A stretch of 61,170 nucleotides of DNA from a virus (IMGVR_UViG_3300026039_000012:1-61170); one strand, 5' to 3'; positions 3,166-61,170 are shown, counted from the stretch's first letter. Numbers and translations are program-made. Notes: generated from the letters alone by a model not told the origin.

Positions 3166-3178
3166 GTTCAGAGGGGAC

Positions 3179-5707: not shown

Positions 5708-5708
5708 G

Positions 5709-7166: not shown

Positions 7167-7187
7167 ACCTCAGAGGGTAGTGCCCGA

Positions 7188-10284: not shown

Positions 10285-10306
10285 GCCTGCCCCGGCTCTG
10301 TGAGGG

Positions 10307-10660: not shown

Positions 10661-10679
10661 GTTTCCCCTGTGCCGAGTG

Positions 10680-11478: not shown

Positions 11479-11951
11479 TGCACCTCCAGACAGATCAGGA
11501 AGACCCTCAGCGCTGCCAGGGCTCCGGCAGTCGCAAGGAACACCGGGAACAGGATCATCCGCTCGAACCAGCCGTCTGTGTGGATCCACAGCCAGTCAGG
11601 GACCGTCAGGCGACACCTGAGAATCTTCGACGGGATTCCCCGCCGGCCAGAGAAGATGTCGAGCAGGAGATGAGACCCCCACCCGACAGCCAGGGAGAAG
11701 GGGACCCAGTAGAGAGGAAGTCCTGGGAGAGCCATCACAGCGGCCAGGACTCCGAGAGCGAGCGGGATCTCCAGGAGATGAGTCTTCCCCCGGTGACCGA
11801 TGCCCAGTGAGAGATCCATGTCGGGACTGAACGACCCTCCTCCGGAGTAGTAGGCGAGAGCTGTACCCGCAGCAAGCGGAAGCGGGTCGGAGGGGGCGAC
11901 GGCCAGCCAGAGTGCGGCAGCCGCCAGGCGGTGCGTGGACTTCATACACAT
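11475..11951 (-). CDS. Membrane-bound metal-dependent hydrolase (YdjM/DUF457-like)
   Basis: THR...SPDMDL...HRGKTH...SHLLLDIFS..GIP motif set with hydrophobic segments. Confidence 0.78.
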   Translation of the reverse strand: MCMKSTHRLAAAALWLAVAPSDPLPLAAGTALAYYSGGGSFSPDMDLSLGIGHRGKTHLLEIPLALGVLAAVMALPGLPLYWVPFSLAVGWGSHLLLDIFSGRRGIPSKILRCRLTVPDWLWIHTDGWFERMILFPVFLATAGALAALRVFLICLEVQ

Positions 11952-11964
11952 GATCGTTCCCCGT

Positions 11965-12474
11965 TTACCTCGTGTACCACCAGGACCGAATCGGGCCGGT
12001 CGTCTTGCCCGTCGAAACCATGCGCTCAACGATCCGGCGCTCACGCCGATGGATCTGCTCCTCCCTTCGCTCACGCCTCTTGATCTTGCGAAGCCGGTTG
12101 AGAGCCTTCGACCGCCGGTTGCGCTGAGCCGTCTTCCGGTTGAGGGCATCGACGTCACGTGACCACCCGAACAACCAGTCATCGACTGTCTGACGACGCT
12201 TCACGGATCGGCGGTGGTCTGCCCATCTGTCTGCTGTGCTGCGCTCGCAGTCCGGCACCCAGCGCTGAAGCTTCACTCGGCCGTGGAGCACGACCGGCCG
12301 GTGATTCTTGGGCCGCAGCAGATCGAACACACGTCCGGCGGTCAAGCAGGCACGACACACAAGCTGCCCGTCCGTCGTCGGGATGATCGACGGGCTTCCG
12401 CAGACCGGACAGGAGTACGTCCCATTGGCGTCCACAACGACTTCGTAACGATTCGACCCCGTACGTCTCTTCAC
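11965..12474 (-). CDS. Zinc-ribbon and Arg-rich hypothetical protein
   Basis: CPVCGS...LVCRAC; GTG start with GAGGGAGG RBS just downstream of a promoter motif. Confidence 0.6.
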   Translation of the reverse strand: MKRRTGSNRYEVVVDANGTYSCPVCGSPSIIPTTDGQLVCRACLTAGRVFDLLRPKNHRPVVLHGRVKLQRWVPDCERSTADRWADHRRSVKRRQTVDDWLFGWSRDVDALNRKTAQRNRRSKALNRLRKIKRRERREEQIHRRERRIVERMVSTGKTTGPIRSWWYTR

Positions 12475-12496
12475 TGGGAATCCTCCCTCTCGCACT

Positions 12497-12522
12497 TATG
12501 TAGTCGTACTGTAACACACAAG
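12497..12522 (-). promoter_or_regulatory. Repeated promoter/operator, copy 1
   Basis: TGTAgtcgtacTGTAACACAC; the minus strand reads TGTG-T-TACAGT (extended -10). Confidence 0.75.
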
Positions 12523-12539
12523 CGGCTCGAAAGGACTAC

Positions 12540-14234
12540 TCAGCGCCCCGTTGTAGTGACTCGCCGGAGGCCTCTGGGGGAGTTGATCCGTGGGTCAGAC
12601 GGACGTGACCGGATCGGCCGTCCGGGAGCACCTGGGGAGGGGGAGGCAGACGATGCACCAGGAACCGTCAGAGAGGCAGAGCCACGCTCACGGAACTCGG
12701 TCAACGCCTGGGTGAGCGTGTCCACCTGGTCGTCGTTCTTCGCAGACGGGAAATCCCTCAGCTCTGGAAGGAGGTGCTGAAGTACCCAAGCGTTGCCGGG
12801 GTCGCGCGGGTGGGGTAGGTAGACATTCCCGCTCTGACACTCCGGTGTGACCGACCGCGCCCGCGCTTCCTTCGACGTCTTCGGGTTGATCGGCTTGAGT
12901 CCGGGGATCTCCTCGTGAAGCACGTCGAGAATCGCCGGACCGTTCGCCTTGTCCTCGATCAGTCGTTGATGGACGAACCTCCCGTGAGGTCCACCTCCGT
13001 GAGCCCAGGCTTTCATCTCGGAGATCGTCTGTGTGAACGACCAACGGCCACGTCGTTGAGCGATCAAGAACCGATTCGCCTTGACCTTCACCCAGCGCTG
13101 ACCAACGACCCAGTCGGAGGAGTCGAGCCCCTTGAAAGCACAGTCCCAGGAGTCGAGCCAACGCCCGCCGGCCAACGTGTCGGGGTCGAGGTAGACGACA
13201 CGACCGTCCTCGGTAGCTCGTGCCGGGTCTGTCGTCCAGAACCTCCACCAGTCAGTCGAGAAGATCGCACCCTGGGCCGGACTCGGCTTCTGCTGGTACA
13301 GCGCTGCCCAGACGTACTCACCAACGTTCCGCCGGACGTCCTCCAGCCTCTTGGTGGCGCTCTCGTCGTCTTCGTCAATGATCGGAGAGAGAAGCGGGGC
13401 ACCTACCTCACGACCGAGCTGGTCGCCCTCCTCTGCGACAGCGGGGAGCTCGACCACGGTCCAGTCAGCGGGATCGCCGTCGAACTCGGAGCTGAGCAGA
13501 CGGCCCACGATGTCGTCGTCGTGCCAGCGCGTGAGCGTGACGATGACGAGCGAGGGAGGCTCCAGGCGGGTCTGAGCGACAGAGCGCCACCAGTCCCAGA
13601 CAGCGTCACGAGCGATCAAGCTGTGAGCGCTCACTGCATCCTTGATCGGGTCGTCAATGCAGAGCACACGGCAGCCACGGCCTGTGAGGGACTCTCGGTA
13701 CGAGACAGCCATGAGCTTCCCCCGCTCGGTCGTCTCCCACTCCGAGACTGCCCCGGCGTCCGGAGCGACGCGCACACCTGGACCGAGAAGACCCGCTTCG
13801 ACCCAACGCCGGATCTGCCGTCCCCAGCTGGTGGCCAGCGACGGGTCGTGGCTGACGAGAGCAACCGACCACGACGGATGCAGCGCAAGGATCCACGCTG
13901 GGGTGAGCATCGTCAGCATCGTCGTCTTGCCCGACCTCGGAGGCATCTGAACGATGATCTTCCGGTCGATCCCGTTCTCGACGTCGTGCAAGGCATCGAC
14001 GATGACCGACGACAGATACTCCAGCTGGGGACGGACCCGGAACGGCTCACCGAGTGCGTACGCCTGTTCGATCGGAGAGGCCGGGAGCGTGGCCGACTCG
14101 ATCCCTCCCAGACTGTCGAGCAGAGCTGACGCTGCGAGCGGGGGCAGAGAGTCCACCAACTCTCCGATCTGAGCAGGGCTCAGCCCTGAGAGCATGTGCC
14201 GGATGTCGTCATCCGACCCGGTGAGAGCAGCCAC
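12540..14234 (-). CDS. terL: Terminase large subunit
   Basis: MPPRSGKT Walker A, LCIDDPIKD Walker B, TRWHDDD, ALYQQKP, DSWDCAFK, IEDKANG and FPSAKNDDQVD nuclease motifs; start uncertain (ORF extends to 14318). Confidence 0.93.
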   Translation of the reverse strand: MAALTGSDDDIRHMLSGLSPAQIGELVDSLPPLAASALLDSLGGIESATLPASPIEQAYALGEPFRVRPQLEYLSSVIVDALHDVENGIDRKIIVQMPPRSGKTTMLTMLTPAWILALHPSWSVALVSHDPSLATSWGRQIRRWVEAGLLGPGVRVAPDAGAVSEWETTERGKLMAVSYRESLTGRGCRVLCIDDPIKDAVSAHSLIARDAVWDWWRSVAQTRLEPPSLVIVTLTRWHDDDIVGRLLSSEFDGDPADWTVVELPAVAEEGDQLGREVGAPLLSPIIDEDDESATKRLEDVRRNVGEYVWAALYQQKPSPAQGAIFSTDWWRFWTTDPARATEDGRVVYLDPDTLAGGRWLDSWDCAFKGLDSSDWVVGQRWVKVKANRFLIAQRRGRWSFTQTISEMKAWAHGGGPHGRFVHQRLIEDKANGPAILDVLHEEIPGLKPINPKTSKEARARSVTPECQSGNVYLPHPRDPGNAWVLQHLLPELRDFPSAKNDDQVDTLTQALTEFRERGSASLTVPGASSASPSPGAPGRPIRSRPSDPRINSPRGLRRVTTTGR

Positions 14235-14238
14235 GACG

Positions 14239-15252
14239 TCAGGGGGTGTCGACCGTTGCTCCGGGACCCTGTAGACGTCCACGGAACCAGTCGATGGTCC
14301 AGCGCAGACCCTCGTCACGAGAGATGACCGGGTCCCAGCCGAGTACCTCGTTCGCTCGCCGGATGTCCGGCAGTCTGCGCCGAGGGTCCTGCTCGGATGC
14401 AGGAAGGTAGTCGATCTCCGGCACCGTGCCGGGGTGGATCATCTGCCAGATCTCCGCAGCAAGATCAATGATCTTGACCTCGTCGGGATTCCCGACGTTG
14501 ATCGGGTGCGTGATGGCGCAGGGGTAGTCAGCCATCGAGAGCAGCCCGCGCACCGTGTCCGAGATGAAACACAGCGACCGTGTCTGCTCGCCGTTGCCGT
14601 GCACACTCAGTGGCTCCTCGTCGAGAGCCTGCCGGATGAACGTCGAGACGACACGCCCATCGTCGGGAGACATCCCCGGACCGTACGAGTTGAATATCCG
14701 CGCGATCCTGGTGGAAACCCCGCAGCGCTCTCGGTAGAGCGTGACGGCTACCTCCGCCGAGCGCTTCCCCTCGACGTAGCAGGCCCGGTCACACATGCTG
14801 TCGACGTAGCCCGGATCGGTCTCGACCTGGGGGCAGCGGAGCGGGTCGCCGTATACCTCCGACGTGCTCGCCTGAAGGAACGTCGCGCGGTTGATCAGCG
14901 CCAGGTCCAGGAGATTCATCACGCCGACCGACGACGCCGCAAGGGTCCCGAGGGGGTTGAGCCGGTACTGCACTGGGGACGCCGGGCACGCCAGGTTGAT
15001 GATCTTGTCACACCGAGGGACCAGGCGGTCCAAGCCCGGATCGGTGATGTCGTGCTCGATCACCTGAATCCGGTCACTGAACTTCGAGTAGCGCAGAGCG
15101 ATGAGAGTCGTCTGTGACCCAGTGCTGTAGTTATCGACGGCAATGACTCGACTGCCCCGCGACAGAAGCTCCCAGCAAATACGTCCACCGAGGAATCCTG
15201 CTGCTCCGGTAACCAGAACAGTTTCCATCGTGTAGTCAGGTGCGTCACTCAC
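14239..15252 (-). CDS. uxs: UDP-glucuronate decarboxylase (UDP-xylose synthase)-like SDR
   Basis: TGAAGFLG Rossmann motif, NLACPASPVQY, ASTSEVYGDP, RACYVEGKRSAE (YxxxK), RIFNSYGP, DDGRVVSTFIRQAL, DPRRRLPDI. Confidence 0.88.
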   Translation of the reverse strand: MSDAPDYTMETVLVTGAAGFLGGRICWELLSRGSRVIAVDNYSTGSQTTLIALRYSKFSDRIQVIEHDITDPGLDRLVPRCDKIINLACPASPVQYRLNPLGTLAASSVGVMNLLDLALINRATFLQASTSEVYGDPLRCPQVETDPGYVDSMCDRACYVEGKRSAEVAVTLYRERCGVSTRIARIFNSYGPGMSPDDGRVVSTFIRQALDEEPLSVHGNGEQTRSLCFISDTVRGLLSMADYPCAITHPINVGNPDEVKIIDLAAEIWQMIHPGTVPEIDYLPASEQDPRRRLPDIRRANEVLGWDPVISRDEGLRWTIDWFRGRLQGPGATVDTP

Positions 15253-16219
15253 TGGTTTCTTCCTCCTCTGACCGGGACCTGGTCGACCAGTGGCCCTTGG
15301 TGATGTTCAACGAGATGGCCGGAGAAGGTGTGGCGTCCTCGAACGGCACACACAGACGGCGCTGCCATGGCCTGTAGTCCACATGATGGTGCGTCCGGTT
15401 GAACCGCGTGACGACACGTGCGACGTCCGGATGGGCTCTGACCAGGACCAACGCCTTACGGAGGTGAGCGTCAGGACCCGCGTAGATGGTCGTGGTGTTC
15501 CCTCCCTTAGTCCGCATCGTCGTCGTCTTATTGACGATTCCGAATTTAGATAGGATCGTATTCCATCCTGCTTTCATTAAATCTAATGAAAGAATGGTGT
15601 CCTCGTTGTATACACCACGCCATCTCTGTGGAAGATCAGTCCGTATAAGATTGCATGAATATACACGAGTATTGACAAGAGGCGCATTCCCGTTGTTCTT
15701 AGGATTACAGAACATCATGTAATCCAATCCGCCCATTGCGACATTCCTATAACGACGCATCAATTCTTCCAGGTACCGGAGCGGACCGGCATCGCTGGCG
15801 AGCACCTTCCGTGCACCGTAGAACCACCCGAGATCAAGGTGATTGTCGTCCAGACACCAGTAGTACGAGTGCCCCTCTGACAGCGCGTGATCCCACGCGA
15901 AGTTCCGAGCCGGACCTGAGCCGCGCGAGGCGTCAGGTGGAAGGTCCCAGCAGGGGTCGTAGCTGCGCTGATACTCCGGATCGAGGGTCAGCACACGTCC
16001 GTACCCACCGAGACCTGAGACCTGCTCCTCGTAGAGCGACGTTTCGTCGTGCTCGACCACGAGAGTGAAGGGCACACGGATAGCCGAGAGCAGCCGGACA
16101 GTGCCGGAGACCAGGTCAGAGCGCCCCTTGCTCTGGATGTAGATCGGGAACAGGGGCATGACCGGCGAGAGCTGTCGATCAGAGGGCACCCAGACGTCAG
16201 AGATCGGGAGCATCGTCAT
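15245..16219 (-). CDS. TET-associated-type (TAGT/GREB1-related) glycosyltransferase
   Basis: PIYIQSKGR, GSGPARNFAWDH, WCLDDN, NTRVYSCNLI, WRGVYNEDTILSL, TMRTKGGNT, HPDV, RFNRTHHHVDY motifs. Confidence 0.8.
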   Translation of the reverse strand: MTMLPISDVWVPSDRQLSPVMPLFPIYIQSKGRSDLVSGTVRLLSAIRVPFTLVVEHDETSLYEEQVSGLGGYGRVLTLDPEYQRSYDPCWDLPPDASRGSGPARNFAWDHALSEGHSYYWCLDDNHLDLGWFYGARKVLASDAGPLRYLEELMRRYRNVAMGGLDYMMFCNPKNNGNAPLVNTRVYSCNLIRTDLPQRWRGVYNEDTILSLDLMKAGWNTILSKFGIVNKTTTMRTKGGNTTTIYAGPDAHLRKALVLVRAHPDVARVVTRFNRTHHHVDYRPWQRRLCVPFEDATPSPAISLNITKGHWSTRSRSEEEETSE

Positions 16220-17000
16220 CGTCCCCGATCACTGTCTGAGCCTGCTGCGTTGCGTCCCGGCGCCGCTCCGGCTGCTCGCCGTACCAGTAGCTCTCGGTCC
16301 CGTTGCCGGCCCCCCTCCGCATCGGCGTACCGATGAACTCGACGAGACGCCGGTACGCCTCTTCGTCGGAGACACGCACGACGAGCGTCCGGTACGCACC
16401 CAGGTCACGGATCGGGTGTCCTTCGAGCGGAGGTGGGGGAAGCGCATCACGCGCGAGACCAGGCATCCTCGGGTTGCTGAGGTCGTCCGGACCATCGTCA
16501 CCGGTCGGCACCCAGGCTGTGCTGAGGTACTCCTCTGCCTCGGTGAGTCGGCGCAGAGCCTCACGATCCTCATCCGTGAACCCGAGAGGGTAGTCGTCGT
16601 CCATCTCCTGAAGCTCATCGAGCAGGCTGAGCAGGGTCTCGTCAACCCACCCGCCCAGCTCCGTCGTCCTGTTCAGGGCGATGAGAGCAGCGTGAGCCTC
16701 CCGGTCCGACTTCGACGACCATCCGGTGACAACCGGAACGGTCCAGTACCCCTCTTCGTCGATGGACGCGCCGTTCGGGAGGGGTCCCTTGTTCTCGCAG
16801 ATCGAGAGCAGAGCCTTCCGTCGTCCGTGCCCTGAGACCAGGAACCCCGTCCTGCCGTCGATGACGAACGGCTCGATGATCGAGAAGTGCCGGATCGACT
16901 CCTCGATGGCCTTCTCGTCGTGGGCCTTCGGATTGCACGGGTCTTCCTTGAGGTCCGACAACCGCATGTACTCGATGCTGTGCGACTCGTACAGCTTCAC
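16197..17000 (-). CDS. ParB/Srx-like N-terminal domain protein (DNA-modification-cassette type)
   Basis: LSDLKEDPCNPKAHD...IEESIRHF..IEPFVID..TGFLVSGHGRRKAL...IALNRTTELGGW; no C-terminal HTH and no parA. Confidence 0.8.
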   Translation of the reverse strand: MKLYESHSIEYMRLSDLKEDPCNPKAHDEKAIEESIRHFSIIEPFVIDGRTGFLVSGHGRRKALLSICENKGPLPNGASIDEEGYWTVPVVTGWSSKSDREAHAALIALNRTTELGGWVDETLLSLLDELQEMDDDYPLGFTDEDREALRRLTEAEEYLSTAWVPTGDDGPDDLSNPRMPGLARDALPPPPLEGHPIRDLGAYRTLVVRVSDEEAYRRLVEFIGTPMRRGAGNGTESYWYGEQPERRRDATQQAQTVIGDDDDAPDL

Positions 17001-17011
17001 TGAGGATCTCC

Positions 17012-17470
17012 TCACTGCTGATCTCCCTGCTCATCGTCGTCGTCGTCCAGCGGGTCAGACGGGGCGTCGGCCACCCCTGCGTCACGTCCGTCGTTGTCCG
17101 CCTGGATCTCCAGGAGACGCTGAAAGAGCAGCTCACGCGCGTCCGCTGCCTCGATCTTCGTGACCCGACCCCAGCCAGCGCGGTCCAGGAGGCTGTTCGC
17201 CGCTGTCTGCTTGTCCCTCGACGTGTTCGACCTGTCGGCCATCTCCCGTGCCAGGGTGGCAATAGCAGGCTCTACCAGCGCTGCGAGCCTGAGCTTCGCT
17301 GCTCGTTTCGCTGCCGACGCCGCACCGCCGTGAGCCCTGCACACGTTCTGCCCACGCATCGCCGGGGCCATGCACGGCTCGCCCGTCTTACTCCTGTGTG
17401 CCGTGCACAACCGCCGGTTGAACTTGTCACGGCGGGGTTCGATGGGTGTCGAGACCCCATGAGGTTCCAT
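17012..17470 (-). CDS. terS: Terminase small subunit (HGGxS-motif protein)
   Basis: CTAHRSKTGEPC...VCRAHGGAA, then a helical region with AANSLLDRAG; upstream of the terL cluster. Confidence 0.65.
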   Translation of the reverse strand: MEPHGVSTPIEPRRDKFNRRLCTAHRSKTGEPCMAPAMRGQNVCRAHGGAASAAKRAAKLRLAALVEPAIATLAREMADRSNTSRDKQTAANSLLDRAGWGRVTKIEAADARELLFQRLLEIQADNDGRDAGVADAPSDPLDDDDDEQGDQQ

Positions 17471-30538: not shown

Positions 30539-31099
30539 TCAGTGTGTCGTCTTGACCTTGTTCGGCCAGGTGCCCTGGAGGCGCTCCCACTCCGTCTGCC
30601 CCAGCGCTGCCCTGATCAGAGCAGTCTCGACCCAGTCAGCGGACACCCCAGCCAGCGCTGCACCCGTCCGGTCAGAGTAGTCACACGCTTCGACTCTGGT
30701 CAGATTCACCAAGAGAGGTTCGTCCTTGAACCGCGCTGGGTGATGATCTCGTGCATCGTCATGGCCCTGAGACTCCACGAAGTCCCAGAACTTGACGGCT
30801 GCCTCCTTGTCACGGTCCACCAACTCTGCCCAGGTCGGAAGCGTCGTGAACCGCAGTTCGTGGCACATGTTCTGGAGGGGCGTCATCGAGATCACCGACG
30901 TTGCTTCTGCTGGGGTGTCCTCATCCCCAGGGTCTCCGAAGTCCGGGAACAGCTCTCCCTCGAAGTAGGCGACGGTGTCTGTCGCTACGCACGGGAGAGC
31001 CGGCCCCAGATCCCCAGGGGACAACGCCATCACTACCGGAGTCCCCGGGGGTACTGCCTCAAGCTGCTCGATCAGGAGTGCAGCAGTCATCTGGTTCAC
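30539..31099 (-). CDS. Hypothetical protein, tandem paralog of 31148..31693
   Basis: Shares MTxAxLIEQL..PPxTPVVxAL.PG.L, PLQNMCHE.R..TLPTWA.L and LG.TEW.RL with its neighbour. Confidence 0.7.
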   Translation of the reverse strand: MNQMTAALLIEQLEAVPPGTPVVMALSPGDLGPALPCVATDTVAYFEGELFPDFGDPGDEDTPAEATSVISMTPLQNMCHELRFTTLPTWAELVDRDKEAAVKFWDFVESQGHDDARDHHPARFKDEPLLVNLTRVEACDYSDRTGAALAGVSADWVETALIRAALGQTEWERLQGTWPNKVKTTH

Positions 31100-31147
31100 G
31101 GCGGTACCTCCGAGGCTCTGAGTGATGTCTGTCCTCAACTGTCCCGC

Positions 31148-31693
31148 TTACGGGAGTGCTTCGTATATGTCCATGAGCCGACCCCACTCAGTAGGCCCCA
31201 GAACGGCGAAGGCATCCCCTTCACCGGGGTCCGTGCTGTCGTCACACAGGTCGACCAGGAGTCGGTCAGCGTGCAAGCACGCCTCCGCGGTGGTCAGGTT
31301 CGCCAGCTCGAACGAGTCGACGAACTTCACGGAGTAGTTCTCTCTCGCATAGCTCACCCCTTCGCTGTCGCACTTCGCCCAGTAGGCGACGACGCAAGCC
31401 TTGTCGATATCGGACAGGGAGGCCCACGTCGGCAGCGTGGCGTACCTCATCTCGTGACACATGTTCTGGAGAGGCAGCAGAGCGACAACCGGTATCGCGT
31501 CCTTCGGGGTGTCGTAGTCCATCTCACTTCCCAGCGCCGAGTACAACATCCCGTTGGCGTAGGCCACGAGGTCCAGGGCGACGACCGGCTGAGCCTCGCA
31601 GAGTTCCCCTGGAGCGAGAGCGAGCACGATCGGGGTGCTGGGGCTGAACTCCCTGAGCTGGTCGATCAGGTCGGCCACGGTGATCTGTTTCAT
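31148..31693 (-). CDS. Hypothetical protein, tandem paralog of 30539..31099
   Basis: Same shared motifs; AGAAGGA RBS. Confidence 0.7.
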   Translation of the reverse strand: MKQITVADLIDQLREFSPSTPIVLALAPGELCEAQPVVALDLVAYANGMLYSALGSEMDYDTPKDAIPVVALLPLQNMCHEMRYATLPTWASLSDIDKACVVAYWAKCDSEGVSYARENYSVKFVDSFELANLTTAEACLHADRLLVDLCDDSTDPGEGDAFAVLGPTEWGRLMDIYEALP

Positions 31694-42101: not shown

Positions 42102-42425
42102 TTACTCGTCATACCGAGCAGCGCTGGCTGGTGACGTCGCCTGCTCGATCACGTCAGATATCCCTGTCGTCTTCCAGAAGTTCCGGTGAGCCGTCTGCGC
42201 TGCCACGATGACGACAGCGATGGCACCGAGGATCTCCTCCACGGAATGCCCGGGAAGTGAAAGATCACCACTGAGCCAGGCAGTCATTCCGCCGACTGCC
42301 GTACAGATCAGCACAGTGACGACGGACCTCAGCCTGTTGCTCCACGAGGGTCGCTGGACGACAGCGATCACCGGAGGCAGAAGCACCCCCAGTACCAGTG
42401 CCCAGGTTGTCAGGACTTCGCTCAT
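42102..42425 (-). CDS. Putative holin (3 TM)
   Basis: WALVLGVLLPPVIAVVQRPSWS...AQTAHRNFWKTTGIS..IEQAT pattern of actinophage holins; adjacent to the endolysin. Confidence 0.7.
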   Translation of the reverse strand: MSEVLTTWALVLGVLLPPVIAVVQRPSWSNRLRSVVTVLICTAVGGMTAWLSGDLSLPGHSVEEILGAIAVVIVAAQTAHRNFWKTTGISDVIEQATSPASAARYDE

Positions 42426-42540
42426 TTCTGCCTCCGTGAGTAGTCACGTCTGCGTCCTCGGCCGGTCGGCCTCGTGCCTCTAGCCTAGGGTTTCAGCATG
42501 ATCACCGAGTGCAGGCGCAGCGCAGGGGAGGGGTGGGGGA

Positions 42541-42900
42541 GTGTCTCCGATTGAGGTCGTTTTCGGGTTCCTGGGGATCATGGTCACCCAGGTCTGCGGA
42601 GTCTTGGGACTCTGGCTACAGAGCCGAGGAAATCACTCGACGCAGACCACGAAACTGGACGAGCTGGCAGCACAATTCCAGCGACACATGGCCCGATTCC
42701 ACCAGGTGAGAGGCAATCATGGCGAAGGTGAAGACACCGACACCTACGAAGATCATTACGACCCTCGGATTCACGACGACGGAGGCATTCCAGGCCGCGT
42801 GGAATCTCGGTCCAGCGCTGACGGTAGACGGGAAGATCGGCCCGGCAACCAAGGCGGCGGCACTCACCTCCTGGGGGAGGCACCTCCACAACCGGCCTGA
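42541..42900 (+). CDS. Possible single-TM lysis-associated membrane protein
   Basis: GGGGGA RBS; N-terminal TM helix then a coiled segment; the 3' half overlaps the endolysin out of frame. Confidence 0.45.
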   Translation: MSPIEVVFGFLGIMVTQVCGVLGLWLQSRGNHSTQTTKLDELAAQFQRHMARFHQVRGNHGEGEDTDTYEDHYDPRIHDDGGIPGRVESRSSADGRREDRPGNQGGGTHLLGEAPPQPA

Positions 42901-43276
42901 CCTCTCGGAGCACTTCTCTACGAGCGACTTTCGGTGCCACTGCGGAGGGAAGTACGCAGGGTGTCAGGGAGTCCTCGTACAGCGTGACCTGCTGATCGGT
43001 CTCGAAGTTCTCCGGACTCGGGCCTACCCGAGAGGCCTGGTCATCGTCTCCGGCTACCGCTGCGAGAGGCACAACGCGAAGGTCAACGGAGCAGACGGCT
43101 CGAAGCACGTCCTCGGTCAGGCCGCTGACATCAAAGGAACCGTCCCGATCGCGACCATGAAGAGCTTCCAGCTCTTCGGCGGGATCGGGTACAAGCGCTC
43201 AACTGGGAAGGTGACTCACGTCGACTGCCGTCGTGTCTCTCACACCAACCCCACCGTGTGGATCTACAACAGCTGA
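42719..43276 (+). CDS. Endolysin: peptidoglycan-binding helix plus peptidase M15A
   Basis: FQ...LTVDGKIGPATK PG-binding motif; SEHFS..DFRCHCGG, IVSGYRC..HNAKVNGA.GSKHVLGQAADI, THVDCR. Confidence 0.88.
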   Translation: MAKVKTPTPTKIITTLGFTTTEAFQAAWNLGPALTVDGKIGPATKAAALTSWGRHLHNRPDLSEHFSTSDFRCHCGGKYAGCQGVLVQRDLLIGLEVLRTRAYPRGLVIVSGYRCERHNAKVNGADGSKHVLGQAADIKGTVPIATMKSFQLFGGIGYKRSTGKVTHVDCRRVSHTNPTVWIYNS

Positions 43277-43298
43277 CCCAACGAAGTGCAGGCAAAAC

Positions 43299-43341
43299 CA
43301 ACGAGCCCCCAGACCTCTCGCGAAAGTCCGGGGGCTCGTCG
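43299..43341 (-). terminator. Terminator hairpin, best formed on the minus strand (possibly bidirectional)
   Basis: ACGAGCCCCC / GGGGGCTCGT; stem mismatches become G-U pairs on the minus strand and are followed by GTTTTG. Confidence 0.65.
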
Positions 43342-43449
43342 CTGGGTAGATCGACGCGGGGAGCGCCTCTCAATGCCTCGACGTGATGATCGCAGCGACG
43401 TCAGCATACGTGTCGGCTGACCCGCCCGCTACCTGCCCGGCGCTGTGCA

Positions 43450-43778
43450 GCCGCTCGATATCTGTGCGTGGCCTCGATCACGTCGAGCGCTCGCGAGCGA
43501 TCGCCATTCACACGTCGAGCGATCGGCAGACAGCTGGGAACGTCGGGTGTCCGGAGTCCCGAACACCTGTAGCAGATCGAGGCCTCAGCATGCACGCGTC
43601 GAACGCCTGTGACCTGGTCGAACATCATCGAGCACGTCTGTGCAGGGGGTACGTTCCTGTGCTCGCTCGACGTTGATACCGGTACGTTCCTGCGCTCGAT
43701 CGGCGAGCGCTCAGGCGAGCAGCTCCGAGCGTTCCGACGAACGTCGAGCGCTCGATCCGTCTTGGCCGATCGAGCATC
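43450..43778. repeat. Noncoding repeat-rich region; candidate clt (TraB-binding locus)
   Basis: ACGTCGAGCG at 43480, 43512, 43741 and inverted at 43664; GGTACGTTCCTGYGCTCG at 43648 and 43681; many further TCGAGC/GCTCGA cores. Confidence 0.55.
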
Positions 43779-43802
43779 GTGTGTTACACAAGACGTACAT
43801 AC
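43779..43802 (+). promoter_or_regulatory. Repeated promoter/operator, copy 12, the only inverted copy, upstream of the spd/traB operon
   Basis: GTGTGTTACAcaagacgTACA is the reverse complement of TGTA-N7-TGTAACACAC; its -10 reads TACACA. Confidence 0.72.
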
Positions 43803-43904
43803 ACACACGTTGACTCGCCGTGGCTCTGGCCAGCCCCGGCGACCTGGGCGGGGATACGCCACTGGCCTGCTCGATCCGGCGACTCCTCGCGAACTGGAGT
43901 CGTC

Positions 43905-44771
43905 ATGATCATTCAGCAGAAGTTCCCCTGGTACATGGCTCTCGTCGGAGCAGTCGGAGCAGCCGGTCTCGTGACCGGTATCGGCACGCTCGCCGAAGCG
44001 TTCATCCCCCTGTTCGGAGCGTTCTGGGCCTGGGGTGCAGCTATCTTGCTCGACCTCCTGGCGCTCGCTCTGACCGTGTGGGCCATTCAGGAGATCCGTG
44101 ACGGAATCCCTGCGGGCCTTGTCCGGTCGTCAGCTCACGGCTGCATTGGGGTGAGCGTCGCCGTGCAGGCTGTCACTGCTGCGCAGGGACTCAGCAACAC
44201 CGCGGGCGGCTGGACCTCCGCGGGCATGCACACGATCCCCCCGCTGGCTCTCGGTCTGGCCCTAGAGCTGATCTACCAGCACTACGCGAAGGAGTGGCGT
44301 GCCAAGACAGCTCCGATCGTGGCAGCCGAGACCATGCGGGAGCAGGCTGCTCGTGCCGCTGTCGGAGTGCCCGTGAAGATTTCACGTGTGCAGCGTGCCG
44401 TCATCAGCGCTGCCAAGGCCGGGGTCGTCGACATGCGTGCTCTCACCCGCCAGATCTCGGATGACGACCTGCTCCAATCCCCGGCAGTTCGGGCTCTCCA
44501 CGCGGTGGTCGACCCCGAGGCCGCAGCGGCTCTGACGGTCAGAGCCAATGCTCAGAAGGCTCTGAGCACCCGTGAGACTGCCGGGTTCCGTCTGCTCCCT
44601 GTCTCAAGTACGGATGACGCTCCAGACGAACTCACGACGCAAGAACGCCGTGAGCGTGTCTGGGAGCTGACCGACAAGGGGAAGGCCACCCGAGAGATCG
44701 CTCGGATTCTCAGATGCTCGCCCAGCACGGTGAGCACTGACCAGCGTGCACGTCGAAAGGAGGTTGGCTGA
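43905..44771 (+). CDS. SpdB2/DUF2637-like 4-TM membrane protein with C-terminal HTH
   Basis: Four TM helices with AW...LLD and MHTIPPLAL..ALEL motifs; C-terminal RRERVWEL..KGKATREIARILRCSPSTVS HTH. Confidence 0.72.
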   Translation: MIIQQKFPWYMALVGAVGAAGLVTGIGTLAEAFIPLFGAFWAWGAAILLDLLALALTVWAIQEIRDGIPAGLVRSSAHGCIGVSVAVQAVTAAQGLSNTAGGWTSAGMHTIPPLALGLALELIYQHYAKEWRAKTAPIVAAETMREQAARAAVGVPVKISRVQRAVISAAKAGVVDMRALTRQISDDDLLQSPAVRALHAVVDPEAAAALTVRANAQKALSTRETAGFRLLPVSSTDDAPDELTTQERRERVWELTDKGKATREIARILRCSPSTVSTDQRARRKEVG

Positions 44772-46924
44772 TGGCACTCCGCAGAAGCGAGGGGTACAAG
44801 ACCAAGCGGATCACGCGGAAGTCTCGATACCGGCGCAACACTGCCCAGGGCGGCGGCACGTCCGAGCTCGTCACGGTCGCTGAACCGGTCATCCCGATCG
44901 CTCCGTGGGTCTCCGGCCCGTTCCTGTACGGCGCAGGCGTGTTCCTGCACTACCTGTGGCTTCACGGGTTCTGGGAGCGCCTCATGTTCGTCGGGATCTT
45001 CGCGGTGGCCGGCGGGGTCATCGGTCTCTTCGCGGTCAGCTACGGCCGTGCTCGAACTGAGTTCCAGCGCGGGCACGCGGGAGTCACACCGGTTCTCTTC
45101 TCCCTGATCGTGAGCGTCCCGCTCATGCTCGGGTTCGGCAGGTACTCGTCGCTGATCATGCTCACGTACTGGTTCGTCCTGTCCGGTGGTTGGGTCGCTC
45201 GTGTCGCTCGCTCGGTCTGGGGCGACGGGGCAGACATCCACAAGGGTGATCCCGCTGCGCTCGTCGGCGAGACCTTCGGTCTCCCGGGGATGCAGGTGCA
45301 CGATCAGTTCGGGGACCCCATGCCGACCCCGGAGAGGCCTCGGTCTCGGGTCATCCGGATGACTGCGCTGCGCTCGCGCACGGAGGCACCTGCTCCGGCG
45401 CTGCCTGCCGGAGAAGACCTCGACAGAGATCCCGACATGGACCCCTCACGATTCGTCGATGGGGCACCTGACGACCTCGACGTCATGGAGGGGGTCGTCA
45501 CTCGGAAGGTGACCGTACGTGGGACGCAGGGGTACGAGGACATCCTCAAGGCTCTTCCTGGACTGCGGAATGCGGCACGAGCGCACTCGGCAACGGCGAA
45601 GCCAGTATCCGGGAACCCTCAGGCTGCTCTCGTCACGCTCGTGCTGAAGGACTTCCTCGAGGACGTGCTCCCGTGGCCGGGGCCGTCTCAGCCTCCGGGG
45701 TCCAGCTCGGTCGAGGTCTGCGTGGGTGTCCGGCAGAGCGGGCACTATCAGCGCTTCGCTCTGGCCGGACGTCAGGGGACGTGGCGCGGGGTCGTCTGCG
45801 GTACAGCCGGGTCAGGGAAGTCTCGTTGGTTGTGGCTGATCATGGCCGACTGCGCTGACCGGGAGATCGTCTGGTGGGTCTGTGACACGGCGAAGGCCGG
45901 ACAGACTCTCGGACCTGTCCTGGAAATGATCGACTGGCTGGTCACGGAGGAGGAGGACGTCATGGGAATGCTCAGCGCTCTCCGTGACGTCATCTCCGAG
46001 CGCTCGAAGCTGCTCGGAGATCGTCAGGTCTGGACTGAGGACTGCGGACTTCCCTTGCTCGTGTTCGTGTGCGACGAGTTCGCGAACGTCGCGACGGCCA
46101 CCAAGAAGACAGCAACGATGATCACTCGGCTGAGCGAGCAAGCGCGGTCGGTCGGTGTGTCGCTGGTCTTCCTGATCCAGCGTCCGTCGTCGACCAACAT
46201 GCCGACTGACGCGCGTGCCCAGCTGAAGTCGCGATTCTGTTTCGGCCTGGTGGACGAGCAGACCTCACGGATGGCTCTGTCAGCGCAGACGCTCGCCGCA
46301 GGGGCTGCCCCTCACCTCGTTGATGTCGAGGAGGACTTCGGCCTGCACTGGTATGAGGGACCGGGATTCCCTGCGAAGGATTGGGTTACCCGCTGCCGGA
46401 CGTACGGGATCGAAGCTGACGTAGTCAGAACTCGGGTCAAGGCGGGCCGGCTATACCGACGGGGGTTGGACGAAGGTTCGACACGGGCAGCAGGTCCCGC
46501 CTATGCCGCGCGTCAGCGGACGGCCGTGTTCGGCCGGTCGACAGACGACGCTCAGGCGCCGGCCTCGCAGACGTCGGGTGGATCTGACGCGAAGACCATA
46601 GGAGGCCATTTCACGGCCGACAATGACCTCAACCCTGACGGAGACACCGGGGATGGGGTTTCGAGCTTCTCCGACGAACCTCGCGCCGCTGAGGTAGTCA
46701 CGAACCCTCCAGAGGAGACACGCACCCGGGAGGAGGTGCTTCGAGCAGTGATCGAACCGCTGAACGACGGGACGGTCACGACAGCGGAGATCCTTTCCCG
46801 CTGGGAGAAGATCACGACGTTGCACCGTCGTGAGTTGTACCGGGCGATCAAGGCGTGTCCGGACCTTTCGGCCACGACGCAGAAGGGGCTGTGGATCTTG
46901 AGTCGCTCACGTCAGCGTTCATGA
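44771..46924 (+). CDS. traB: TraB-type FtsK/SpoIIIE dsDNA translocase
   Basis: N-terminal TM helices; GTAGSGKS Walker A; FVCDEFA Walker B; QARSVGVSLVFLIQRPSSTNMPTDARAQL..RFCFG; low-complexity linker; C-terminal winged-helix-like domain. Confidence 0.82.
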   Translation: MALRRSEGYKTKRITRKSRYRRNTAQGGGTSELVTVAEPVIPIAPWVSGPFLYGAGVFLHYLWLHGFWERLMFVGIFAVAGGVIGLFAVSYGRARTEFQRGHAGVTPVLFSLIVSVPLMLGFGRYSSLIMLTYWFVLSGGWVARVARSVWGDGADIHKGDPAALVGETFGLPGMQVHDQFGDPMPTPERPRSRVIRMTALRSRTEAPAPALPAGEDLDRDPDMDPSRFVDGAPDDLDVMEGVVTRKVTVRGTQGYEDILKALPGLRNAARAHSATAKPVSGNPQAALVTLVLKDFLEDVLPWPGPSQPPGSSSVEVCVGVRQSGHYQRFALAGRQGTWRGVVCGTAGSGKSRWLWLIMADCADREIVWWVCDTAKAGQTLGPVLEMIDWLVTEEEDVMGMLSALRDVISERSKLLGDRQVWTEDCGLPLLVFVCDEFANVATATKKTATMITRLSEQARSVGVSLVFLIQRPSSTNMPTDARAQLKSRFCFGLVDEQTSRMALSAQTLAAGAAPHLVDVEEDFGLHWYEGPGFPAKDWVTRCRTYGIEADVVRTRVKAGRLYRRGLDEGSTRAAGPAYAARQRTAVFGRSTDDAQAPASQTSGGSDAKTIGGHFTADNDLNPDGDTGDGVSSFSDEPRAAEVVTNPPEETRTREEVLRAVIEPLNDGTVTTAEILSRWEKITTLHRRELYRAIKACPDLSATTQKGLWILSRSRQRS

Positions 46925-46943
46925 TCAACTTCCCCCAAAAATC

Positions 46944-47003
46944 CACCCCTGGGAAAACCCCCGTAGCCCCCCGTAGGGGGGCAGGGGGTTTTACCCAGGG
47001 GTG
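46944..47003. repeat. Hairpin with CCCCCC-GTA-GGGGGG apex, an inverted relative of the 34.6-kb hairpin
   Basis: Its reverse complement contains CCCCCTGCCCCCCTACGGGGGGCTACGGGGG, against CCCCCTGCCCCCTACGGGGGCTACGGGGG at 34625-34653. Confidence 0.68.
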
Positions 47004-47022
47004 TGCTGCATAAAGATCATGC

Positions 47023-47733
47023 TCAGACTGCGGCTGCTCGGTAGTGGAACTCCCCCGAGAGGACGTCTGTCGAGGCCACGGTGAACGGCTTGTCCGTCGT
47101 GATCCGGCTCTGGGGCGCGGTGCCGTCCCAGGTCCCGGACATCGAGACGTCAGTCCCCGCCGCGTTCCAGGTGCCGAGAGCCCCGGAGAAGTGGTGCAGC
47201 GTCGGGCTCTGGTCACGGAAGATCCACGTTCCGACCGAGAGTTGTAGCAGGTCAGAGGCCGGTGACCACACCGCACGAGGGAGCGAGATGCTGCATGTCG
47301 CACTGATCGAGGGGGACGTTCCGAAGACGAGGTAGAACCCGCCGTCAATCCAGTCCTCTCCCCCGAACCTGGGGGTGACGGTGTACCAGCCGTAGGTCGC
47401 TCCCCCAGTCCCGACCGTGATGTTAGACAAAGTCGGGACATAGCTCGTGTAGCCCTGAAGCGGTGTCGGAGTCGGAGGGGTCAGCGTGCTCGACCCGAGC
47501 ACGATCACCCGGCGACCGTGGAGCTGGACCCACACTCGTTGATCGACTTCCAGCGCAGGGAGGTCGAGCACCTCTGGAACGAACGGCAGCTGGTTCAGGT
47601 CGCCGTCCAGCTTGATCCTCAGCGGACTGACAGCCATGACTGTGGCCCACCTGAACGCGCTTGTGGTGGATGCCTGGGGCTGCTCAGGTGGTGCTACAAC
47701 GATCGGCTCGAACGTCGTGAGGGCCTCGGTCAC
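47023..47733 (-). CDS. Minor tail / receptor-binding protein
   Basis: FRWATV..VSPLRIKLDGD...VDQRVWV N-terminal spike-like domain and beta-rich C-terminus; last tail gene. Confidence 0.7.
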   Translation of the reverse strand: MTEALTTFEPIVVAPPEQPQASTTSAFRWATVMAVSPLRIKLDGDLNQLPFVPEVLDLPALEVDQRVWVQLHGRRVIVLGSSTLTPPTPTPLQGYTSYVPTLSNITVGTGGATYGWYTVTPRFGGEDWIDGGFYLVFGTSPSISATCSISLPRAVWSPASDLLQLSVGTWIFRDQSPTLHHFSGALGTWNAAGTDVSMSGTWDGTAPQSRITTDKPFTVASTDVLSGEFHYRAAAV

Positions 47734-58294: not shown

Positions 58295-58624
58295 CTACGG
58301 AGTGGCGGGGACTTCGAGGTTCGGAGTGACCTTGATCAGCTCCAGTGACTCTGTCGGAGCTGTGGTCTGAATCCCGTCCTTCTCCAACTTGATCACTCCA
58401 CTGTAGGTGCCGGGGGCGAGAGTCCCCGTCAGCCCATGGGTGAGCACTCCCAGCGCGGGGTCCCCGACAACCGTCACGTCCAGCTCGGTGACGACCCCTG
58501 CGCGGGAGCTGACCAGCATCGTGGCTGTGACTCCGGTGAGCGAGACAGGATCGCCTGTCACTCGATCCGTCAACGTGAACGTCACGTCGTGCGTGTCGCC
58601 CTCTTTCACGGTCAGCATCAGCAC
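58295..58624 (-). CDS. Small BppU-like beta-sandwich structural protein
   Basis: VKEGDT...TLTD..TG.PVSLTG.TA...G.Y.G...T.P pattern. Confidence 0.6.
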   Translation of the reverse strand: MLMLTVKEGDTHDVTFTLTDRVTGDPVSLTGVTATMLVSSRAGVVTELDVTVVGDPALGVLTHGLTGTLAPGTYSGVIKLEKDGIQTTAPTESLELIKVTPNLEVPATP

Positions 58625-61170
58625 GACCCTCCTGGGGTGATGTCGAGAAGTGGGCCGGTGGACGCGAGGTCGAGCAGGGGGCCCGCGGAGACGACATCGA
58701 GCAAGGGGCCTGACGCCTCGACGTCGATGATCCCAGGCCAGCAGAAATCCGGGGTGAAGATCTCACCGGAGGCTGTCGCTTCCAGGACGAGCAGAGCCTC
58801 AGCCAGCCCCGGGATGTACGGACTGCCGGAGGCTGTCGCTGTGAGAGAGAGCGACGCAGACCCGGACCCGTACTGATCGACTTCTCCCGACGCCTGGGCG
58901 AGTAGCTCCAGGGCAGCGAGAGCCACCCCGTACGCGGAGATGACCCCGACTGCTGTGGCCTCCAGCGACAGCGGAGCAGTGGCCTGACCGGAACGGCCGA
59001 TGACGCCGACAGCAGTCGCCAGCATCGACAGGGAGGATTCGGCTCTACCGGTGACGACTCCCCGGCCAGAGGCCGACGCACCCATCGTCAGGGAAGCGCT
59101 GGCAGATCCTTCCAGGTCCGCAGACCCCTGGGCTGTGGCAGTCAGGGCAAGGGGGGCGACCGCGTGTCCCCGGAGAACGGCCGACCCTTGAGCTGTCGCA
59201 CTCATCGACAGGTCGGCCGTCGCCGTACCGAGCAGGCCAGACGCTCCGGACGCCTGAGCCGTGAGGGAGAGGCCAGCCGACGCCGTTCCCGTCAGGCTCC
59301 CCGAGCCCGATGCCGTCGCCGAGAGGGTGAGGTCTGCCGACCCTGAGCCGACGTCCGGCTGTTGACCGGAGGCTGTCGCGACAAGGGTGAGATCTGCTGT
59401 CGCTGATCCTGCGAGGGACCCAGACCCGGTGGCTGTCGCTGAGAGGGAGAGATCTGCCGTGGCCCGCCCGAGACCAGCGCTCTCACCTGAGGCTGTCGCC
59501 GTGAGCAACAGGTCGGCGGTGGCGGTCCCTGCCAGAGAGGACGATCCGGAGGCCGACGAGGAGAGGCCGAGCTGGGCCAGGCCACTGCCCAGCACGGACC
59601 CCGAACCAGACGCCGTAGCCGCCGCCGTCAGCGCTGCCAAGGCACTGCCGACGATGACCTCTCGACCGCCCGCAGCCGCCCCAAGGACGAGCTCGGCCAG
59701 AGCCGACGTCGCGTACAGGGTGCCAGATCCCGAAGCCGTAGCGGTCAGCGAGAGGTCAGCAGAGGCCGACCCATCCCCCGCGCTTGCACCCACGGCTGTA
59801 GCCGTCAGTGTCAGGGAGGCAGACGCAGAGCCCGAAGCCGCACCAGATCCGGAGGCGACGGCACCCAGCGCCAGCGCTGCCTGGGCCTGCCCGTACTGCT
59901 CGATCTCTCCGGCTGCCTGAGCGTCGAGCGTGAGATCTGCCGAGGCCGAACCTGTCCGCTGCCCTGAGCCGGACCCGGTGGCCGTCAGCACGAGGTCAGC
60001 CGACGCACTCCCCGTGAGAGCGCTGGACCCGGACGCTGTCGCGGCGAGGGTCAGCCCCGCAGACGCCTGCCCAGAGACCTTCCCAGACCCCTGCGCTGTC
60101 GCTGTGAGCGAGAGGGCTGCGAGTGCAGAGCCGGAGGAAGAGCCAGACCCCGAGGCTGTGGCGCCGAGAGTCAGCGCAGCGGTAGCAGAGCCCTTGACCA
60201 CCTCGTGGCCGGACGCTGTGGCCCCGAAGGTCAGTGGTGCAAGAGCTGTACCCGAGAGAGATCCAGAACCCGAGGCAGTCGCTCCGAGCTGGAGAGCGGC
60301 CTCGGCAGTTCCCCGCAGAGTGGCCGATCCGGAGGCAGTAGCCGAGAGAGCAAGGGAAGTGGAGGCAGCGCCAGCCAGTGATCCAGCCCCGGACGCCGTA
60401 GCCCCAAGGGTGAGGCCCGCGAGAGCAGAGCCGTAGACGGTCGGGAGAGTCGCTGACCCCGAGGCAGTGGCCCCCAGGGAGAGCGATGCACTGGCAGACC
60501 CGGAGAGCTTCCCTGCGCCGGAGGCAGTAGCCCCGAGGGAGAAGTCAGCAGAGGCAGTTCCGTAGGTCGGAGGGACCGTTGCACTTCCGGAGGCTGTTGC
60601 CCCGAGAGAGAAGTCAGCCGCAGCAGAGCCGGTCGCGACAGTACGGGCCTTGACCTCGAAGACCATCTTCGAGTGGGTGAATGAGGCGCTGCCCGTCGCC
60701 CCGGTGTTCAGGGTGCCGGTCGCAGTCGAGTCTCCCGCCGAGACAGCGAACCGACCGACATTCGTCGAGGTCAGGGAGTGGTTACCGAGGATCGTCAGGG
60801 GGGCTACGGTCGTCAGCGTCAGCGTGTCAGACGTAACCGTGGAGTACATGATCTTGCTGCCGATGGCACCGACCGTGAGGCTGAGCCGGTGGTCAGAGCT
60901 AGTCGCCCAGGTCGTGTACGACCCCCCAATGATGCTGGAGAGGTTGACTCCGGTCAGGACGTAGACGTCAAGACCGAGCCCGGGGTTCGTCGCAGCCGTG
61001 GCCGTCACGGTCATCGCAGCTGTTTCTGCGCTGATGACGGTGTAGTACGCGCGCATCGCGTACTGGTTGAGGATCGACGTCCAGGTGTGACCCTGGGAGT
61101 CGGTCATGTTGGTGATGGACCCGCCGGACGTCCATACCGCAGCGAACGCAACGACGACGGAATGCAGAGG
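58618..61170 (-). CDS. Long Ala/Gly/Ser/Thr-rich fibre protein with about 30 ~20-aa repeats (5' end beyond the window edge)
   Basis: Repeat unit G[ST]A[ST]AxL[ST]LxATASGSGxx; the frame is open to the window end. Confidence 0.8.
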   Translation of the reverse strand, partial: PLHSVVVAFAAVWTSGGSITNMTDSQGHTWTSILNQYAMRAYYTVISAETAAMTVTATAATNPGLGLDVYVLTGVNLSSIIGGSYTTWATSSDHRLSLTVGAIGSKIMYSTVTSDTLTLTTVAPLTILGNHSLTSTNVGRFAVSAGDSTATGTLNTGATGSASFTHSKMVFEVKARTVATGSAAADFSLGATASGSATVPPTYGTASADFSLGATASGAGKLSGSASASLSLGATASGSATLPTVYGSALAGLTLGATASGAGSLAGAASTSLALSATASGSATLRGTAEAALQLGATASGSGSLSGTALAPLTFGATASGHEVVKGSATAALTLGATASGSGSSSGSALAALSLTATAQGSGKVSGQASAGLTLAATASGSSALTGSASADLVLTATGSGSGQRTGSASADLTLDAQAAGEIEQYGQAQAALALGAVASGSGAASGSASASLTLTATAVGASAGDGSASADLSLTATASGSGTLYATSALAELVLGAAAGGREVIVGSALAALTAAATASGSGSVLGSGLAQLGLSSSASGSSSLAGTATADLLLTATASGESAGLGRATADLSLSATATGSGSLAGSATADLTLVATASGQQPDVGSGSADLTLSATASGSGSLTGTASAGLSLTAQASGASGLLGTATADLSMSATAQGSAVLRGHAVAPLALTATAQGSADLEGSASASLTMGASASGRGVVTGRAESSLSMLATAVGVIGRSGQATAPLSLEATAVGVISAYGVALAALELLAQASGEVDQYGSGSASLSLTATASGSPYIPGLAEALLVLEATASGEIFTPDFCWPGIIDVEASGPLLDVVSAGPLLDLASTGPLLDITPGGSC
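60714..61170. repeat. Diverged copy of 1..457; the last 80 bp are identical to 378..457
   Basis: Gap-free alignment at offset 60713. Confidence 0.9.

Follow-up and report, generated by a model that had tools for sequence, protein, structure and literature searches.

A phage operon encoding a TraB-like ATPase and a coupled membrane protein, candidate machinery for DNA transfer between actinobacterial cells

The virus IMGVR_UViG_3300026039_000012 was analysed over its entire record of 61,170 nucleotides (nt; CheckV completeness 98%), referred to here as the window. Between its tail genes and its early genes lies a plus-strand block in which an endolysin gene, a hairpin, a non-coding spacer, an open reading frame (ORF) for a membrane protein (ORF1), a gene for a TraB-like ATPase (the pump) and a second hairpin follow one another. 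Our comparisons indicate that ORF1 and the pump gene form a conserved phage operon, and suggest a possible role in moving phage DNA between cells. The features of the block are:

42719-43276, plus strand: M15 endolysin (Pfam PF08291, E = 8.5e-13; phrog_894), a separate unit closed by a hairpin
43298-43345: left-border hairpin that closes the endolysin unit (−26.7 kcal/mol, z −4.2, 0 of 200 shuffles as good)
43340-43904, plus strand: non-coding spacer of 565 nt with a dense cluster of short repeats
43780-43803, plus strand: sole plus-strand copy of a promoter-like motif (TGTGTTACAC...TACA; pattern search 1 match against 0.00 expected)
43905-44771, plus strand: ORF1, 288 residues, ATG start
44771-46924, plus strand: TraB-like ATPase gene, 717 residues
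46950-46997: right-border hairpin between the convergent traB-like gene and the tail gene at 47023-47733 (−37.9 kcal/mol, z −4.1, 0 of 200 shuffles as good)

The stop codon of ORF1 and the start codon of the pump gene overlap in the sequence TGATG, with AAGGAGG located 9 nt upstream; the two genes are likewise translationally coupled in a related locus, L004, by a 4-nt overlap. The initial annotation had described a coupled plus-strand pair in an almost wholly minus-strand genome: the pair is indeed coupled and on the plus strand, but the endolysin gene is a second plus-strand gene. The start of ORF1 had been placed at 43779, where an ORF finder sets a GTG start; the ATG at 43905, preceded by a GGAG ribosome-binding site, is instead the most likely start, because all 15 homologues begin at the corresponding MII or MIV and because the GTG falls within the promoter-like motif. 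A consensus scan calls the left-border hairpin terminator-like on the minus strand.

The pump matches the NCBIfam model plasmid_TraB (NF041214) at 192.1 bits (E = 1.6e-56), FtsK at 1.2e-6, and EssC and EccC at 1e-6 or weaker; Pfam FtsK_SpoIIIE gives a weak match of 22.8 bits. An hhalign comparison of 11 close pump homologues with 11 TraB proteins (plasmid, distant, and from actinomycete integrative and conjugative elements, AICEs) returned Prob 100 and E = 1.5e-70 over 634 columns, and the alignment spans positions 4-702 against 39-744, membrane region and C-terminal domain included. In trees of the motor domain, for which the FtsK, EccC and other FtsK-like comparison rows were taken from two actinomycete genomes, a quick analysis of 33 rows united the 11 phage-family rows in one clade (98 in the Shimodaira–Hasegawa-like approximate likelihood ratio test, SH-aLRT) and set 22 TraB-like rows on one side of a branch (SH-aLRT 94); a careful analysis of 32 rows, which omitted one long-branch EccC row, returned the TraB/FtsK split at 78/95 and in 76% of 200 bootstrap trees. 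The identification of the ATPase as TraB-like is borne out by these comparisons, a grouping with non-TraB FtsK-like proteins was not seen, and judged by sequence the pump is of TraB type and not of FtsK type.

Close relatives of the pump are scarce among known replicons. A tblastn search of 72,556 plasmids returned 62 records, 45 of them from Streptomyces, none covering 80% of the query, and the best annotated matches are Streptomyces traB genes at 25–32% identity. Among cultured phages the same approach found no full-length relative; 31 Bacillus-type records each cover 21% of the query at 26–31% identity. The pump family is a separate, rare TraB clade with its own coupled membrane partner, and this is new here.

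The pump carries the Walker A motif GTAGSGKS (344-351), an acidic pair (D435/E436) and QRPS (470-473); among 11 pump sequences G344, G347, G349, K350, E436, Q470, R471, P472 and S473 are invariant and D435 is nearly so. A basic N-terminus leads into a four-helix N-terminal domain with a family-specific invariant motif, WVARVARSVWGDG. In the AlphaFold model (mean predicted local distance difference test, pLDDT, 64.5; linkers disordered, motor ~80) the N-terminal membrane helices occupy residues 43-62, 67-91, 97-119 and 124-150, and residues 653-710 are modelled as helix-strand-helix-helix-strand-strand (pLDDT ~84), a predicted winged-helix topology. The best solved-structure matches of the motor are TcpA of the Clostridium plasmid pCW3 (E = 1.8e-14) and the FtsK motor (E = 3.8e-14), a likeness confined to the motor at 16–20% sequence identity.

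ORF1 had been described as a four-helix membrane protein of DUF2637/SpdB2 type with a C-terminal helix-turn-helix (HTH). The architecture is recovered in its AlphaFold model (mean pLDDT 79.9), in which helices at 9-37, 39-65, 71-95 and 100-152 are followed by a helical middle part and a three-helix C-terminus (245-287); Pfam HTH_38 scores 25.5 bits, just below its cut-off of 27, and GerE also falls just below its own. The family label is weak, and the remote signals for it are modest: hhalign gives ORF1 a Prob of 40% against a single bona fide DUF2637 protein and of 50.6 against a 4-sequence DUF2637 profile (score 33, 111 collinear columns, conserved Asp aligned); these alignments cover 103–111 columns overall, against ≤22 columns and a Prob of ≤0.4 for four decoys (another four-helix domain and reversed profiles). 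In the ESM Atlas, DUF2637 and SpdB_N clusters come first by features (0.86) and a DUF2637 cluster comes first by structure (template-modelling score 0.75), both of which are leads only. A fold search among the viral models of BFVD gave 0 matches at E ≤ 1e-3; ranks 2 and 6 are phage DUF2637 proteins (E = 5.6e-3 and 6.6e-2), and rank 10 is Gp25 of phiC31. Four bona fide DUF2637 proteins from plasmids and genomes possess HTH-like C-terminal tails, judged by reading their sequences. Remote likeness thus allows ORF1 to be called, tentatively, DUF2637/SpdB-like, and not a member of the family.

A profile search with the ORF1 alignment, run against 1.84 billion representatives, produced 818 matches at E ≤ 0.001; among the 150 matches listed, seven cover the membrane domain and the others the HTH alone, often as tandem repeats, with no link to a named family. 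A tblastn search with ORF1 against 50,697 phage and 72,556 plasmid records brought up no counterpart.

Among 5.8 billion proteins, 15 match the pump, 11 of them closely, and 15 match ORF1; homologues of the two occur on contigs of the same sizes (54,402, 11,604, 10,683 and 16,955 bases), which suggests that they share contigs. Protein identities within the family are 39–66%, and we therefore conclude that the pair has a long history of co-descent. ORF1 and the pump gene are adjacent in all six loci with sequence upstream of the pump (L003, L004, L006, L007, L009 and L010; L008 is cut there). In L006 the pump, 46% identical, is followed by homologues of the window's two tail genes (59% and 65%), and in L004 a convergent homologue of the tail gene at 47023-47733 follows it (37%).

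L004 is a circular 16.8-kb element (1-16955, with a 127-nt terminal overlap) that encodes a different terminase, a 1003-residue portal-protease-capsid fusion ORF, a tape measure and a Rep-like HTH protein whose gene is accompanied by four 23-nt iterons (6089-6181), and that carries an Arc-like repressor gene (PF03869, 26.1 bits) directly upstream of the ORF1-pump pair; it is either one of the smallest tailed-phage genomes or a phage-plasmid. L003 and L007, from other records, are near-identical to it. A search of viral contigs returned L003 and L004 only; a pattern scan of isolate genomes with the family alignment found no relative, and a scan of isolate genomes with the distant protein P0013 returned two AICE-like loci only. 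In L009 (2852-3200) and L010, on the minus strand, a small membrane ORF of ~93 residues (MRRSSRVGFDEG...) diverges from the ORF1-TraB operon; the window has none.

These relatives agree with the view that the module belongs to the phage and is not a recent AICE or plasmid insert, a view further supported by its conserved placement; a copy of the phage's promoter-like motif lies ahead of it. Because the pair and the adjoining tail gene are conserved in diverged relatives and in L004, and the G+C content of the module (~0.65) lies within the range of the genome (0.59–0.685), the pair fits an old phage gene set under selection and not a recent AICE insertion. Its residence in an integrase-less, polymerase-encoding phage and in a 16.8-kb mini-phage, and its conserved siting beside a tail gene, are likewise new here.

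The promoter-like motif has the core TGTGnTACA...TAC and occurs 12 times in the window; 11 copies are on the minus strand and one is on the plus strand, so that the claim that the only inverted copy of a 12-copy promoter/operator precedes the pair stands, with promoter function putative. The minus-strand copies are:

12509, 19642, 22230, 25141, 27695, 32103, 34389, 36437, 38100, 38555 and 41990, minus strand: core matches

The 12 copies align with an invariant T..TGTG.TACA...TAC. Each minus-strand copy lies a few bases before a ribosome-binding site and start codon, and in six of the 11 the inverted words TATGTAG...CTACA flank the motif; the plus-strand copy has no TATGTAG upstream, and a leader of ~100 nt comes after it. 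The repeated motif may be an extended −10 promoter (TGnTAnnnT), in many copies flanked by TGTAG/CTACA; with its flanking inverted words, the minus-strand form looks like an extended −10 element with operator half-sites, or like a start-associated sequence. A σ70 consensus scan found 0 sites in 42400-47100.

The spacer that contains the plus-strand copy is the only non-coding 565-nt stretch of the window with five copies of one 8-mer. ACGTCGAGCG occurs in it four times (43480, 43512, 43664 on the minus strand, and 43741), accounting for four of the five exact copies of this 10-mer in the window; the palindrome CGAGCGCTCG occurs twice, as does the 12-mer GGTACGTTCCTG, 33 nt apart; and five of the 24 copies of ACGTCGAG, a motif picked post hoc, lie in the spacer, whereas its frequency elsewhere in the window predicts 0.18. 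L009 and L010 also have several hundred non-coding bases before ORF1, dense in words such as GGTGTCCA, TGTGCGA and GAACAC, and the repeat arrays of L004 lie downstream of the pump gene. The spacer repeats are a candidate binding array for the HTH of ORF1, the winged helix of the pump or another regulator, whether as operators or as clt-like sites; the words differ between lineages, and they may be operators, clt-like docking sites or origins.

Nearly all genes of the window with PHROG matches lie on the minus strand:

1254-2195, minus strand: major tail protein
3179-5398, minus strand: major capsid protein
8527-10422, minus strand: portal
12540-14318, minus strand: large terminase
42.4 to 14.3 kb, minus strand: WhiB, DNA polymerase, primase-like protein, helicase, exonuclease and Sak4
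from the record's other end down to 47023, minus strand: head-tail adaptor, tape measure and tail proteins

Its portal is ~50% identical to Microbacterium phage portals and matches 877 actinophage records, on which grounds the virus is an actinobacteriophage; its structural genes resemble those of phages of unicellular as well as filamentous actinobacteria, and no nucleotide relative was found among 50,697 cultured-phage records. The assembly is sound. The sequencing runs that contain this stretch are wetland metagenomes; in one run (X1), which may be the source sample, a single 13,696-nt contig covers 42400-47500 with zero differences, and in another (X2), from a different sample and study, contigs are identical over all 30 bins and bridge both module junctions (one at 43004-43513, another at 46572-47253). 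The junctions at 43.3 and 47.0 kb, at which the initial annotation had allowed for a chimera, are non-chimeric.

The pair had also been said to lack the integrase, excisionase, replication and kor/traR genes of a plasmid or AICE. Phage_integrase, Resolvase and GntR gave zero matches at E ≤ 0.1 when the window was searched in six frames; a scan of 64 ORFs yielded no Rep, and dedicated models for rep and xis were not part of the search. No ParA was seen in the PHROG scan of the window, and a ParB-like PHROG match at 16197-17015 lacks Pfam support. GC skew tracks gene strand and was dropped as an origin marker.

Several other features of the record were observed. At its high end, a long minus-strand ORF (58618-61170) with 18 copies of a 45-nt unit spaced 60 nt runs off the record, and at its low end another minus-strand ORF (2-538) does so; bases 3-302 are 80% identical to 60716-61015, the two end frames do not join directly, and the assembler probably broke the record within one repetitive virion gene. 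Directly upstream of the large terminase, at 14239-16219 on the minus strand, nucleotide-sugar epimerase-like and glycosyltransferase-like genes (phrog_540, phrog_842) may serve glycosylation of DNA or virion proteins. A 99-nt repeat (30828-30926 and 31422-31520, 71% identity) joins ORFs 30539-31138 and 31148-31693, two neighbours that resemble tandem paralogues. ARAGORN reports an 89-nt tRNA-Cys at 2059-2147 (minus strand) within the major tail protein ORF, probably a false call. Beside the endolysin, a small membrane ORF at 42102-42425 (minus strand) has a 43%-identical homologue that adjoins the Amidase_2 endolysin of L009, and another at 42541-42900 (plus strand) shares ~180 nt, in a different frame, with the start of the endolysin gene; the two are candidate holin genes.

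The best-described relatives of the pump are the TraB proteins of Streptomyces plasmids and AICEs, of which that of pSVH1 is the studied case. According to Thoma et al. 2015 (PMC4447253), TraB alone moves double-stranded DNA (dsDNA), Spd proteins spread DNA within the mycelium, SpdB2 copurifies with TraB, and deletion of traB abolishes pock formation and dramatically lowers transfer; the same paper reports SpdB2 homologues in the actinophages phiC31 and VWB and proposes that they help phage DNA to spread. The pump resembles plasmid and AICE TraB over its full length (membrane N-terminus, PGPS region, FtsK-type motor and a C-terminal winged helix, as predicted by the model), falls on the same side of the tree, and has a small coupled gene ahead of it and short repeats flanking it; it differs from plasmid TraB in its 25–32% identity, in the motif of its four-helix domain, in having only candidate repeats for a clt, and in residing in a tailed phage without an int gene, a GntR/TraR gene or an spd operon, and with no Rep among the scanned ORFs. 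ORF1 resembles SpdB2/DUF2637 (PF10935) proteins in its four predicted membrane helices, its adjacency to TraB and its modelled C-terminal HTH tail; unlike them, it precedes traB, to which it is translationally coupled, instead of belonging to an spd operon behind that gene, and it has no Pfam match.

An AICE, according to Ghinet et al. 2011 (PMC3218068), combines Int, Rep and Tra; the window shows no tyrosine or serine recombinase and no Rep among the 64 scanned ORFs, and the neighbours of the module are phage genes. The 84.8-kb Streptomyces plasmid pCQ4 (NC_019307; locus L025) carries traA-traB (2784-8966) 3 kb upstream of a gene for a 'terminase family protein', a proximity from which pCQ4 looks like a phage-plasmid of the pZL12 kind. 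pZL12 itself is said, in papers that cite the work of Zhong et al. from 2010 in J Bacteriol, to be a Streptomyces plasmid-phage. Both are plasmids of 85–90 kb with ParA/ParB and traA-traB, and precedents for tra genes in plasmid-phages; the window, in contrast, is the 61-kb genome of a phage that encodes its own DNA polymerase; no partition pair was seen in it, it has no TraA homologue, and its pump falls in a separate clade. TraA of pCQ4 was considered as a counterpart of ORF1 and rejected (Prob 0.6), and this unrelatedness, with the missing ParA and the unsupported ParB-like match, sets the window apart from the pZL12/pCQ4 type. FtsK/SpoIIIE-like proteins of cultured actinophages and Bacillus phages, as reports describe them, are also phage-borne FtsK-family ATPases without an assigned role, and many Streptomyces phages are reported there with FtsK-like genes to which no function is assigned; none is a full-length relative of the pump and none has an ORF1 partner. 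Our literature search found no paper testing a phage TraB other than that of pZL12. The idea pursued below is partly anticipated by the traA-traB genes near a terminase gene in pCQ4, by the published SpdB2-phage proposal and by pZL12.

Given the gene identity, protein architecture, conservation, operon limits and phage residence established above, we propose that the pair is phage-resident dsDNA transfer machinery of actinomycete type that moves phage DNA to an adjoining cell or compartment, a reading that we hold tentatively and to which we give a little less than an even chance. A copy of the phage's promoter-like motif would drive the operon. The 717-residue protein would assemble into a membrane-embedded hexameric pump of TraB type, whose C-terminal winged helix could dock on the short DNA repeats at 43.34–43.90 kb; ORF1, a four-helix membrane protein with an HTH of its own, would be made in a fixed ratio with the pump through translational coupling and may contact it. 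The pump would then push replicating DNA of the phage through membrane or septal wall to a neighbouring host cell or hyphal compartment, so that a single adsorption event could seed several cells.

Several observations weigh against this proposal. The 192.1-bit score of the pump is far under the equivalog cut-off of 800 for NF041214, and the pump is therefore a divergent relative, a subfamily rather than an equivalog, whose substrate could differ; the TraB/FtsK split of the careful tree has only moderate support (bootstrap 78). Pfam DUF2637 does not match ORF1 at E ≤ 10 or anything in the six-frame window search at E ≤ 1, nor does it match any of six distant ORF1 relatives at E ≤ 1, and other Spd proteins and TraA are absent from the window. 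The repeats differ by lineage: they are found upstream of the pair in the window and in L009 and L010, whereas those of L004 are downstream. No array resembling the clt of pSVH1 proved to be conserved, and an operator role or a replication origin would explain the repeats just as well. The host may be non-mycelial, as the nearest portals, at ~50% identity, belong to phages of Microbacterium, Mycobacterium and Gordonia.

The pump may instead act on DNA that is not the phage's own, disturbing chromosome segregation or septation of the host, a role already suggested in the literature for FtsK-like genes of phages, or expelling or blocking incoming plasmid or phage DNA (superinfection exclusion). 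Papers on Streptomyces phages list FtsK-like genes together with WhiB and Lsr2 as mimics of host developmental regulators; the window carries a WhiB gene, and PHROGs assigns the category 'moron, auxiliary metabolic gene and host takeover' to FtsK/SpoIIIE families related to the pump. The pump, however, groups with conjugative TraB and not with chromosomal FtsK, it keeps a predicted sequence-reading winged helix and a dedicated membrane partner, and the genome's only dense non-coding repeat cluster adjoins the operon; we consider such manipulation unlikely. FtsK-family pumps clear DNA from septa, and the pump might serve replication, resolution or partition of a phage genome kept as a plasmid-like carrier, or help to bring phage DNA into spores. 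This maintenance role would suit the failure to find an integrase in the window and the plasmid-like core beside the operon in L004 (Rep-like gene, four 23-nt iterons, Arc-like repressor); yet the window has replication genes of its own (DNA polymerase, primase and helicase) and the look of a lytic replicator, ParA was not seen and the ParB-like match lacks Pfam support, and the TraB relatives are transfer and not partition proteins, all of which makes it distinctly unlikely.

A selfish passenger, i.e. a plasmid- or AICE-derived cassette that rides phage genomes with no benefit to the phage, would account for the nearest isolate relatives, which are found on plasmids and at AICE-like loci containing Prim-Pol and DUF3987, and for the cassette's presence in two unrelated phage backbones. 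We judge it improbable: siting beside the same tail gene is kept across 37–59% protein identity, the motifs are intact in 11 members, the G+C content fits the genome, no int gene, and no rep gene among the 64 scanned ORFs, accompanies the cassette in the window, and in a 16.8-kb genome, where ballast is costly, the cassette takes up ~16%. The least expected role is that of a lysis helper, in which ORF1 would form a holin-like pore used by the adjacent endolysin and the pump would be secondary. SpdB2 is reported to have given T7 lysozyme access to the wall and to have formed pores in bilayers (PMC4447253), and the module has an endolysin gene immediately ahead of it in both the window (M15) and L009 (Amidase_2). 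ORF1, however, is coupled to the pump and not to the endolysin, which forms its own hairpin-closed unit; holins do not feature a C-terminal HTH; in L004 the pair is present and no endolysin was found beside it; and the membrane ORFs at 42102-42425 and 42541-42900 are better holin candidates. We regard this role as very improbable.

Returning to the transfer of phage DNA by the pair, we further suggest, as a somewhat unlikely extension of that proposal, that an integrase-less phage of lytic type and an unrelated mini-phage keep the pump as a 'movement' system, and that recipient cells also make virions. If this were true, it would be a virion-independent cell-to-cell spread of a bacterial virus, comparable by analogy to that conferred by the movement proteins of plant viruses. 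As the family is compact (two genes and a flanking non-coding region, present also in a 16.8-kb genome), a direct test would be cheap, and a divergent TraB whose membrane domain is fused to it and strongly conserved should be useful for studying the mechanism of single-protein dsDNA conjugation. Should the proposal hold, phage spread in filamentous or aggregated actinobacteria would not be limited to receptors, particles or lysis, and plaque growth, host range, resistance and gene flow in these bacteria would need rereading.

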